A stretch of 64,000 nt of DNA from Escherichia phage 235Ecol030PP: sequence record PP355091.1, one strand, 5' to 3'. The notes below the pieces were generated by a model. That model was not told the origin of the DNA and searched no databases. It worked only from the letters and a program-made list of their open reading frames with translations. This document shows, piece by piece, positions 37,274-63,680 of the stretch. Each line of letters opens with the position of its first letter. Positions within the stretch are counted from its first letter, which is position 1. A program made the translations under genes and the position numbers.

Positions 37274-37274
<1 letters not shown>
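37077..37274 (-). CDS. hypothetical 65-aa protein
   Basis: Start set to ATG 37274, which shares a nucleotide with the pseT stop (TAATG). Confidence 0.4.
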
Positions 37275-38179
<905 letters not shown>

Positions 38180-38407
38180 CTATTTTTTCTCAACCAGTGA
38201 TTGAATATAATTATGCAAGTCTTTAGATGCTTTACCCCACTTATTTTGGTATTCATTTTTAAGATTAGCACGTGATTGAGCTAATAAAACATCATTAGTT
38301 GGAGGTAAAGATTCTAACCGCTGAATCTGGCGTCCATAAATCATTGCAGCCATCTCGGATTCATAAATCAATCCTTTGAGATGTTCAAATTGATGCCATG
38401 AAATCAT
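38180..38407 (-). CDS. hypothetical 75-aa protein (position of T4 pseT.1)
   Basis: ATG start. Confidence 0.45.
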   Translation of the reverse strand: MISWHQFEHLKGLIYESEMAAMIYGRQIQRLESLPPTNDVLLAQSRANLKNEYQNKWGKASKDLHNYIQSLVEKK

Positions 38408-38703
38408 TTACATTTATCCTCTTTTAACTCTTGACGATAATAACATATCATAGTTTTCTGGTCATGTACATATCGTTTTACATCATTAAGCCAAATACGA
38501 AATTCCTGGGAATCTTCAAATGGCATACCGACCCAAGCTTTACCATCGATAACTTTAACTTGCCAAGATAGTTTAGCTTCATCATATGACTTTATTTGCA
38601 CAGGCCAATTAGGATGAACTGTTTCTTTCTTTACTTCTAGAGGCTTTGTCGAACAACCAACTAGAAGACCAATAGATAATATTACTGCTGATAGTTTAAT
38701 CAT
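38404..38703 (-). CDS. predicted lipoprotein (position of T4 pseT.2)
   Basis: Signal peptide with lipobox LLVGC (MIKLSAVILSIGLLVGCSTK). Confidence 0.55.
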   Translation of the reverse strand: MIKLSAVILSIGLLVGCSTKPLEVKKETVHPNWPVQIKSYDEAKLSWQVKVIDGKAWVGMPFEDSQEFRIWLNDVKRYVHDQKTMICYYRQELKEDKCK

Positions 38704-39053
38704 TTAGAAAGGTCCTGGATGTCTTCTGCGAACTTGTTGAAGGAGTTGTTGATTTGTTTTTCAACCAATCCTGGCTTATGAGCCACCACATCCGCCTTCT
38801 TTGCGTCTTTGCGCAGTTTTTCATTTTCACGCTCAATAGCAGCAATTGCCTCACGATTTTTATTATTCATCGCATCAATATAATTATACTGAATTCGCAA
38901 ATTATTTAATGCTAAGGCGTTTTCATTGGCCGTTTTTGTAATTTCAGTAACTGATGTTTCTAATCTTTCTACCTTATTTTTTAAAATAATAGATGTTCCG
39001 CCAAATGCTATTACAAGTAATAGCAATCCAGCTGTAAAATTACTTACATGCAT
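38700..39053 (-). CDS. predicted membrane protein with N-terminal TM helix (position of T4 pseT.3)
   Basis: Hydrophobic segment FTAGLLLLVIAFGGTSIIL, then coiled-coil-like region. Confidence 0.5.
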   Translation of the reverse strand: MHVSNFTAGLLLLVIAFGGTSIILKNKVERLETSVTEITKTANENALALNNLRIQYNYIDAMNNKNREAIAAIERENEKLRKDAKKADVVAHKPGLVEKQINNSFNKFAEDIQDLSK

Positions 39054-39550
39054 AAAGTTTTAATAACCTCTACAATATCGTCTTGAGAAAGACCGTTAAT
39101 TAAAATATGATGTTCAGCTGGAGATTTAGAAATTTTAAAGCATGCCTCAACATCTTCTGCCATATCCGATGCGCTACGATTTGGATTACTAATTCCAAGA
39201 CGATGTTTTCCCGTCAAAGGATTAACGATGATATAGCATTTACAATTATTGATATGAACATTAGGTTGAGTCTGATTAATGAACACATCACAATCATATT
39301 TCGCAAGCTGATTTTCTAAAAAGACTTTCATCTCCTCAACTGCATCAGGAAGCATATCACGGGCTTGCTCAAGACGACGATTTCGATATTCTTTAATGGT
39401 CGTTTTCCGCTTGACTTGCTTAGCTAAATCTTTCTTAAGATCGGTGATATATCCAACTCGACGATTTCCTTTAAATACAGAAATCCCATCTGTAGTATCA
39501 CCGTATGCTTCAACGACCATTTCAGTAGTAATAAGCTGTAAATCCATCAT
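39044..39550 (-). CDS. alc: Alc, host transcription elongation inhibitor
   Basis: 167/168 aa (two adjacent ATGs after GAGGA); directly downstream of conserved early promoter; T4 position. Confidence 0.75.
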   Translation of the reverse strand: MMDLQLITTEMVVEAYGDTTDGISVFKGNRRVGYITDLKKDLAKQVKRKTTIKEYRNRRLEQARDMLPDAVEEMKVFLENQLAKYDCDVFINQTQPNVHINNCKCYIIVNPLTGKHRLGISNPNRSASDMAEDVEACFKISKSPAEHHILINGLSQDDIVEVIKTLCM

Positions 39551-39554
39551 AAAG

Positions 39555-39608
39555 TCCTCATGTTATGTCAGTAAGTCTACTGTAACACAACACGAGGGAC
39601 TTGTAAAC
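39555..39608 (-). repeat. 54-bp early promoter/leader repeat, copy 2
   Basis: TCCTCATGTTATGTCAGTAAGTCTACTGTAACACAACACGAGGGACTTGTAAAC. Confidence 0.85.
39579..39608 (-). promoter_or_regulatory. early promoter for alc: -35 GTTTAC, 18 nt, TGtTACAGT
   Basis: Near-identical copy of the 25740-25769 element. Confidence 0.65.
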
Positions 39609-39611
39609 AGC

Positions 39612-41199
<1,588 letters not shown>

Positions 41200-61921: not shown

Positions 61922-62719
61922 ATGGCAGTAGTTGGAGTTCCTGGCTGGATTGGAAGTTCAGCCGTAAATGAAACAGGACAGCGCTGGATGAGTCAAGCGG
62001 CTGGTCAATTAAGATTGGGTGTTCCTTGCTGGATGAGTCAATTTGCAGGTCGTTCACGAGAAATTATTCATACTGTAGGAGCAAACCACAATTTTAATGG
62101 TCAGTGGTTCCGAGATAGATGTTTTGAGGCAGGTAGTACACCTATTGTATTCAATATTGTTGGTGATATTGTTTCTTATTCTAAAGATGTTCCTTTATTC
62201 TTCATGTACGGGGATACACCAAATGAATATGTTCAGTTAAATATTATTGGCGCTCATATGTGGGGTAGAGGTGGACAAGGTGGATGGACTCATTCCGGTG
62301 GAGATGGTAATGGACAACAAGGCGGGCATTGTATTCAAAACGACATTGGTGGACGATTAAGAATTAACAATGGTGGAGTAATCTGTGGTGGCGGAGGCGG
62401 TGGTGGCGGCATTGCTTACCGTGTTCACTCAGGGGCAAACTGGCAAGATATTGGTGGTGGCGGCGGAAGACCATTTGGCCCAGGTGGTGGCGGTGGTTAC
62501 TCAGGTGGCGCAGCTTCATACGTCGCCCCAGGAGGTGGTTACCAATACGGAAATGCTCACTCTGGCCAGGGCGGCGATGCCGGAGGAAATGGACAAAATG
62601 CCTGGTCTGATGGTGGTAAAGTTCTAAAGGTTGGTGCAGGAGGAGCAGCAGGTTATGCTGTCATAGGATCTGCTCCAACTTGGCAAAATGTTGGAGTAAT
62701 ATATGGTCCAAGAGTATAA
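61922..62719 (+). CDS. 38: T2-type receptor-recognising adhesin with glycine-rich motifs
   Basis: 265 aa; begins [15 protein letters not shown]; poly-Gly blocks (GGGGGGGG, GGGGG) separating variable segments. Confidence 0.85.
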
Positions 62720-62750: not shown

Positions 62751-63407
62751 ATGGCAGCACCTAGAATATCATTTTCGCCCTCTGATATTCTATTTGGTGT
62801 TCTAGATCGCTTGTTCAAAGATAACGCTACCGGGAAAGTTCTTGCTTCCCGGGTAGCTGTCGTAATTCTTTTGTTTATGATGGCGATTGTTTGGTATAGG
62901 GGAGATAGTTTCTTTGAGTACTATAAGCAATCAAAGTATGAAACATACAGTGAAATTATTGAAAAGGAAAGAAATGCACGCTTTGAATCTGTCGCCCTGG
63001 AACAACTCCAGATAGTTCACATATCATCTGAGGCAGACTTTAGTGCGGTGTATTCTTTCCGCCCTAAAAACTTAAACTATTTTGTTGATATTATAGCATA
63101 TGAAGGAAAATTACCTTCAACAATAAGTGAAAAATCACTTGGAGGATATCCTGTTGATAAAACTATGGATGAATATACAGTTCATTTAAATGGACGTCAT
63201 TATTATTCCGACTCAAAATTTGCTTTTTTACCAACTAAAAAGCCTACTCCCGAAATAAACTACATGTACAGTTGTCCATATTTTAATTTGGATAATATCT
63301 ATGCTGGAACGATAACCATGTACTGGTATAGAAATGATCATATAAGTAATGACCGCCTTGAATCAATATGTGCTCAGGCGGCCAGAATATTAGGAAGGGC
63401 TAAATAA
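62751..63407 (+). CDS. t: holin
   Basis: 218 aa as T4 T; N-terminal TM segment VAVVILLFMMAIVWY; follows gene 38. Confidence 0.9.
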   Translation: MAAPRISFSPSDILFGVLDRLFKDNATGKVLASRVAVVILLFMMAIVWYRGDSFFEYYKQSKYETYSEIIEKERNARFESVALEQLQIVHISSEADFSAVYSFRPKNLNYFVDIIAYEGKLPSTISEKSLGGYPVDKTMDEYTVHLNGRHYYSDSKFAFLPTKKPTPEINYMYSCPYFNLDNIYAGTITMYWYRNDHISNDRLESICAQAARILGRAK

Positions 63408-63680
63408 TTATTTGTTCGTATACATCTCTAGATATCGATATACACCCTCAAAACCCTCGTTGAATTCGTCGATGAGGGTTTTCTTATCTTCTTGAGTTAA
63501 TTCAGAAACAATTTTACGGAATGAATTCTGATTTAATTTTCTACCTTCATGCGTTACTCCAATCTCATTCAGAAATGCAATAAAATTAGAACGATTTTCA
63601 ACAATATCTTCTCTGGAAAATTTAATCAAAATAGACGCAACAGTAATAATTTCACGAACTGTATCAATGTTTTTATTCAT
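63408..63680 (-). CDS. asiA: anti-sigma-70 factor
   Basis: 90 aa, begins MNKNIDTVREIITVASILIKF; convergent with t. Confidence 0.9.
   Translation of the reverse strand: MNKNIDTVREIITVASILIKFSREDIVENRSNFIAFLNEIGVTHEGRKLNQNSFRKIVSELTQEDKKTLIDEFNEGFEGVYRYLEMYTNK

Follow-up and report, generated by a model that had tools for sequence, protein, structure and literature searches.

The two adjacent minus-strand genes lying between alc and pseT.1 in the window, the 64,000-nucleotide stretch of Escherichia phage 235Ecol030PP analyzed here (PP355091.1), almost certainly encode a T4-type two-component spanin (PseT.3/PseT.2) that acts in outer-membrane disruption at lysis. The pair carries every testable defining feature of the T4-type spanin family. 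The assignment draws on the sequence features of the two proteins, their near-identity to the T4 proteins and the conservation of these features and of the gene order, all of which were computed here, and on the literature on T4 alleles differing by one residue (H26N), which covers the complementation of lambda Rz/Rz1 and the cysteine requirement. The genes of the locus are as follows.

39044..39550: alc, the upstream neighbor of the i-spanin gene (Pfam ALC, E 4.5e-92)
38700..39053, minus strand: i-spanin gene, pseT.3 orthologue; ORF of 117 aa, inner-membrane subunit with an N-terminal transmembrane domain (TMD) and a helical periplasmic domain
38700..38703, minus strand: ATGA overlap of 4 nt between the i-spanin stop codon and the o-spanin start codon
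38404..38703, minus strand: o-spanin gene, pseT.2 orthologue; ORF for a 99-aa precursor of a predicted 83-aa mature outer-membrane lipoprotein
38180..38407, minus strand: pseT.1, 75 aa, phrog_2347 (unknown function)
37274..38179: pseT, beyond pseT.1, downstream of the o-spanin gene

The original prediction had delimited both ORFs exactly, leaving their strand unstated, and had correctly named pseT and alc as the genes between which they lie; pseT.1 intervenes on the pseT side. From alc through the spanin pair and pseT.1 to pseT the genes are tightly packed, with overlaps of 10, 4, 4, and 0 nt. The ATGA overlap probably couples translation of the o-spanin gene to that of the i-spanin gene. Another ATGA overlap joins pseT.1 to the o-spanin gene.

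Identity with the T4 spanin pair

The phage of the window belongs to Tequatrovirus. Of the 510 phage records that a 1.5-kb query over the locus matched, 490 share 95–99% identity with it, and the DNA from alc to pseT is 99% identical to that of T4. In the T4 reference, pseT.3 and pseT.2 occupy the same positions between alc and pseT.1/pseT, and both are annotated as "Rz-like spanin". BLASTP comparison showed that the 117-aa protein is identical to T4 PseT.3 at 116 of 117 residues (E 2e-85); the sole substitution, His26 in T4 to Asn26 here, falls just past the TMD. The 99-aa protein and T4 PseT.2 agree in each of the 98 residues that the T4 record defines (98/99 with one X, E 6e-75). Across both genes there are six defined DNA differences from T4, five synonymous and one non-synonymous, and one further position is N in the T4 record. 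This ambiguous base of the T4 reference (NC_000866) lies in pseT.2 codon 86, which may thus read Ile or Thr and adjoins the essential Cys87; in the window, the codon (38446..38448) is ATA (Ile). Apart from His26 and the ambiguous codon 86, the T4 pair is the same as the pair described here in its lengths (117 and 99 aa, with a mature lipoprotein of 83 aa), lipobox, Cys87 and Cys98, cysteine-free i-spanin, ATGA overlap, and neighbors (alc upstream, pseT.1 and pseT downstream).

The function of the T4 proteins has been established experimentally. Among two-component spanins, PseT.3/PseT.2 serves as the model case of the "separated" architecture, a class that still admits an overlap of 8 bp, and the T4 pseT.3/pseT.2 genes restore lysis by complementation in a lysis-defective lambda Rz-am/Rz1-am lysogen (Kongari et al. 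2018, PMC6139136, Fig. 8b). PseT.3 has no cysteine, and PseT.2 has Cys87 and Cys98; lysis is lost when either or both of these are changed to Ser, and dimers of PseT.2 joined by disulfide were seen only when PseT.3 was present (PMC6139136). Covariation between o-spanin E92 and i-spanin K117 was noted in the same study (PMC6139136), and both residues are present in the window proteins. The peptide epitopes against which its antibodies were directed, in PseT.3 (residues 74–87, ERENEKLRKDAKKA) and PseT.2 (residues 71–84, WLNDVKRYVHDQKT) are also present exactly, at the same positions, in the i-spanin and the o-spanin, respectively.

Profile searches gave lysis families as the top PHROG matches of both proteins, and not superinfection-exclusion families. 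The i-spanin matched phrog_739 (E 9.7e-38) and the o-spanin phrog_812 (E 3.5e-43), both full length and both "Rz-like spanin" of the lysis category, and the i-spanin further matched two spanin families weakly (phrog_214, E 3.5e-6; phrog_89, E 1.6e-3). Neither protein scored above the cut-off of any Pfam family. For the 117-aa protein, Pfam gave only sub-threshold matches (crescentin rod Rod_CreS, CCDC113, BRE1, and DUF4446), which reflect its coiled-coil composition; for the 99-aa protein it gave no family. NCBIfam gave no match for either protein, and a sequence search of the PDB returned chance-level matches only (E of at least 0.14), with no relative of solved structure. With no curated Pfam or NCBIfam model and no structure, the family call rests on the PHROGs, the identity with T4, and one published experimental study.

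Features of the two subunits and their conservation

The features of the two proteins map to the following positions, all on the minus strand.

38982..39038: single transmembrane helix FTAGLLLLVIAFGGTSIIL, i-spanin codons 6–24; Kyte-Doolittle 19-residue mean 2.24, helical in the AlphaFold2 (AF2) model
38781..38975: long helix alpha-1, i-spanin codons 27–91, with a continuous heptad pattern (heptad test, AF2)
38706..38774: C-terminal helix alpha-2, i-spanin codons 94–116; AF2 helix after the KPG break, where conservation within the i-spanin is highest
38653..38703: o-spanin lipoprotein signal peptide, codons 1–17, ending in the lipobox LVGC
38653..38664: o-spanin lipobox LVGC, codons 14–17, with the predicted lipidated Cys17 at 38653..38655
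38443..38445: o-spanin Cys87 codon, invariant in four genera; C87S in T4 PseT.2 abolishes lysis (PMC6139136)
38410..38412: o-spanin Cys98 codon, invariant in four genera; C98S in T4 PseT.2 abolishes lysis (PMC6139136)

The i-spanin has only one hydrophobic stretch, residues 6–24, which is followed by 91 highly charged residues (16 K+R and 15 D+E). Residues 28–91 keep one unbroken heptad register, with hydrophobic residues at 79% of the a/d positions compared to 42% overall, in a crude test in which this occupancy was reached by 1 of 5000 shuffles. The single-sequence AF2 model (mean pLDDT 88, and 94–98 across residues 21–80) consists of a helix over residues 5–91, a break at K92-P93-G94, and a second helix over residues 94–116, in agreement with the published description of alpha-1 of PseT.3 as a coiled-coil-prone helix (PMC6139136). 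The protein contains no cysteine. The N-terminal flank of the TMD (MHVSN; residues 1–9, 39026..39053, minus strand) has no Lys or Arg, and the C-terminal flank reads K25-N-K27-V-E-R30, where the sole difference from T4 (H26N) falls. With K25, K27, and R30 behind the helix and no basic residue before it, the positive-inside rule alone cannot fix the topology, and the probable orientation, N-in/C-out, follows from the function.

The N-terminus of the o-spanin, MIKLSAVILSIGLLVGC, is hydrophobic, with a Kyte-Doolittle maximum of 2.7 in an 11-residue window. Behind the lipobox cysteine, positions +2 and +3 are Ser and Thr, and the o-spanin thus lacks the Asp inner-membrane retention signal. The three cysteines of the protein are at positions 17, 87, and 98. 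The single-sequence AF2 model, of low confidence (pLDDT 51), shows a strand pair, a helix, and another strand pair, a pattern that resembles the published beta-alpha-beta prediction only loosely.

Conservation was examined across four genera by comparing the window phage with three divergent phages of other Tevenvirinae genera, Gaprivervirus VR26, Karamvirus CkP1, and Mosigvirus JS09, whose i-spanins and o-spanins are 38–47% and 65–71% identical, respectively, to those of the window. The order alc, i-spanin, o-spanin is retained in all three, and the 4-nt overlap between the spanin genes is common to them and T4. Cys17, Cys87, and Cys98 of the o-spanin are invariant; the lipoboxes read LVSC, IAGC, and LAGC in VR26, CkP1, and JS09, with Ser or Ala at +2. 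Within the i-spanin, the TMD and alpha-1 have drifted in sequence, while the C-terminal helix, KPxLVExQINxSFxxFAxD, is nearly invariant (K93, P94, L96, V97, E98, Q100, I101, N102, S104, F105, F108, A109, and D111 are the same in the four genera). Nearly invariant as well is the o-spanin block WVGMPFExSQEFRIWxNDVxRYVxD, and the i-spanin C-terminal helix and o-spanin residues 57–79 are the most conserved regions of the pair. Such conservation fits a conserved contact between the subunits, for which helix alpha-2 is the probable i-spanin side.

Comparison with the known spanin systems places the pair in the functional class of lambda Rz/Rz1, which likewise consists of a type II coiled-coil inner-membrane protein and a small outer-membrane lipoprotein and shares with the T4 pair the requirement for homotypic disulfide bonds. 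However, there is no meaningful sequence similarity between the lambda proteins and the window pair, and neither window protein matched the Pfam Rz/Rz1 profiles; the pair thus resembles Rz/Rz1 in function while standing outside those sequence families. The gene architecture is embedded in lambda and separated here, and one coiled-coil helix is predicted here compared to two in lambda Rz. The o-spanin is larger, with predicted strand/helix structure, whereas lambda Rz1 is proline-rich and unstructured. In further contrast to lambda, the cysteines are confined to the o-spanin, where both are essential according to the T4 data, and the genes, which are expressed early, show no linkage to those of the holin and endolysin. 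The unimolecular spanin gp11 of T1 also serves the last lysis step and spans the periplasm between an outer-membrane lipoprotein signal and an inner-membrane TMD (PMC6139136), but it carries both anchors on one polypeptide, whereas two separate proteins are used here.

Expression timing and the probable role at lysis

In T4, both genes are represented by early RNA; at the protein level, PseT.2 is early and PseT.3 middle (PMC9697503 supplementary files 4 and 6). These data bear out the label "early" that the original prediction had attached to the two genes. The T4 late-promoter consensus TATAAATA does not occur on the coding strand from 38 kb to 50.9 kb, that is, within about 12 kb upstream, and its absence there fits early or middle expression and not late expression. 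A promoter and terminator scan found 18 sigma-70-like sites compared to 21.1 in shuffles; because this is not above chance, no promoter can be assigned. The holin gene t was found far from the pair.

62751..63407, plus strand: T-type holin gene, 218 aa (phrog_860 holin, E 1.6e-107)

Some 24 kb separate this gene from the spanin pair, which is encoded on the other strand, so the lysis genes are scattered as in T4, for which the unlinked arrangement of spanin and holin genes is documented (PMC6139136, Fig. 8a legend). Early transcription and the lack of linkage to the holin and endolysin genes are unusual for lysis genes, though documented for T4.

On the spanin model summarized in PMC6139136 and PMC12642591, early synthesis would be compatible with a function at the very end of infection. 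The N-terminal helix of PseT.3 would hold it in the inner membrane, from which a domain of about 90 residues, mostly coiled coil, would project into the periplasm, and the lipidated PseT.2 would reside in the outer membrane. The C-terminal parts of the two subunits are expected to bind each other, so that the complexes would thread the peptidoglycan and link both membranes. Made early, the complexes would accumulate harmlessly under the restraint of the cell wall, the meshwork of which is proposed to block their lateral movement and conformational change. The spanins would be freed once holin T has triggered and endolysin has digested the wall; they would then draw both membranes together, and fusion or disruption of the outer membrane would release the progeny. 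This last step would need homotypic disulfide-linked o-spanin dimers formed via Cys87 and Cys98. Membrane fusion, restraint by peptidoglycan, and contact through the C-termini are carried over from the lambda model.

The timing also admits a different emphasis. Since the subunits are made early, many minutes before holin triggering, and their genes are unlinked to the other lysis genes, the bridges might have a second, non-lytic role in addition to lysis, altering the envelope, for instance by stabilizing it during lysis inhibition or by hindering the entry of superinfecting DNA. We consider this improbable. The early RNA and early/middle protein of T4 and the position of t, 24 kb away on the other strand, would be in keeping with such a role, but the peptidoglycan-restraint model already accounts for early accumulation, and conservation is highest at residues expected to serve the contact between i-spanin and o-spanin and disulfide formation. 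A second role is addressed neither in PMC6139136 nor in the review on lysis inhibition, and the T4 spanin genes are mentioned neither in that review nor in the HIDEN-SEQ preprint. If true, it would partly rescue the exclusion idea of the original prediction.

That idea held that the two are early envelope proteins serving superinfection exclusion or interference with host defense, and not lysis. As a sole function this is more improbable still, and we give it hardly any weight. It could appeal to the early transcription and early-to-middle synthesis of the T4 proteins, to the missing late-promoter consensus, and to a genomic setting of host-takeover and nucleic-acid repair genes (alc, pseT, and rnlA) that contains no lysis cassette. 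However, early synthesis also fits the spanin model, in which the complexes would be inert until the peptidoglycan is removed. The idea conflicts with the finding that the T4 proteins, with no more than one differing residue, can stand in for lambda Rz/Rz1 in outer-membrane disruption, for which the o-spanin cysteines are needed (PMC6139136), and with the matches to lysis families in PHROGs. PADLOC gave no match for either protein, which is weak evidence since PADLOC holds bacterial (host) defense proteins and not phage counter-defense proteins. Superinfection exclusion in T4 is attributed to other genes, imm and sp. Thus, the structural part of the original prediction stands, namely the signal peptide and lipobox of the 99-aa ORF (hydrophobic N-terminus, LVGC at residues 14–17) and the N-terminal TM helix and charged coiled-coil region of the 117-aa ORF (hydropathy, heptads, and AF2 helices), as do its neighbors and early timing, but the function it proposed gives way to a lytic one. 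Being lysis genes and not candidates for exclusion or anti-defense, the pair has no priority in screens for new phage-host conflict systems.

Gene order in relatives and the wider window

The protein of 117 aa is encoded in 681 phage records, at identities down to 37% and with conserved neighbors (tblastn), which indicates that the spanin ORFs are real genes. That they are chance open frames or mis-called genes can be dismissed outright against this record across several genera with conserved gene order, the predominance of synonymous differences from T4 (five to one), and the detection of both PseT.3 and PseT.2 in T4 by antibody (PMC6139136) and proteomics (PMC9697503). Plus-strand ORFs around the pair are all of 51 aa or fewer and unsupported, and an Rfam search of 37500..40000 on both strands gave no match.

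The spanin pair is already known: it is the textbook T4 pair in a close relative of T4 and is already annotated as such in many GenBank records. Hundreds of Tequatrovirus records annotate both ORFs as i-spanin/o-spanin or Rz/Rz1, and many of the 510 records matched by the 1.5-kb query label them spanin Rz and outer membrane lipoprotein Rz1 or i-spanin and o-spanin (e.g. phage Lv5cm). The practical value of the present assignment lies in correct annotation.

The relatives differ around the pair. pseT.1 was also found in Mosigvirus JS09, and unrelated ORFs occupy its place in VR26 and CkP1. Most of the closest relatives (e.g. Salmonella phage Lv5cm) carry an extra ORF of 100 aa between pseT.1 and pseT, which belongs to phrog_2364 (unknown function; E 4.4e-53) and is absent from T4 and from the window, where its place would be the 38179/38180 junction. 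The extra ORF explains why a search of phage records returned matches of about 1.8 kb in two pieces. On the other side of the pair, VR26 has an extra ORF of 77 aa, annotated as "inhibitor of host transcription", just upstream of a full-length alc, and the N-terminal 56 residues of the window Alc match a separate short PHROG (phrog_17715, E 5.2e-15). These observations may reflect a partial duplication of alc in some T4-like phages.

Two further genes were noted near t. An asiA-like anti-sigma gene (63408..63680, minus strand) directly follows the T-type holin gene, and the gp38 position is taken by the following ORF.

61922..62719, plus strand: glycine-rich ORF of 265 aa (phrog_2056 "tail fiber protein; host specificity", E 1.4e-110)

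The gp38 of T4 itself is a shorter chaperone. A glycine-rich gp38 of 265 aa suggests an adhesin of the T2/T6 type, and that the phage of the window, though related to T4, is not T4 itself and carries a different receptor-binding module.
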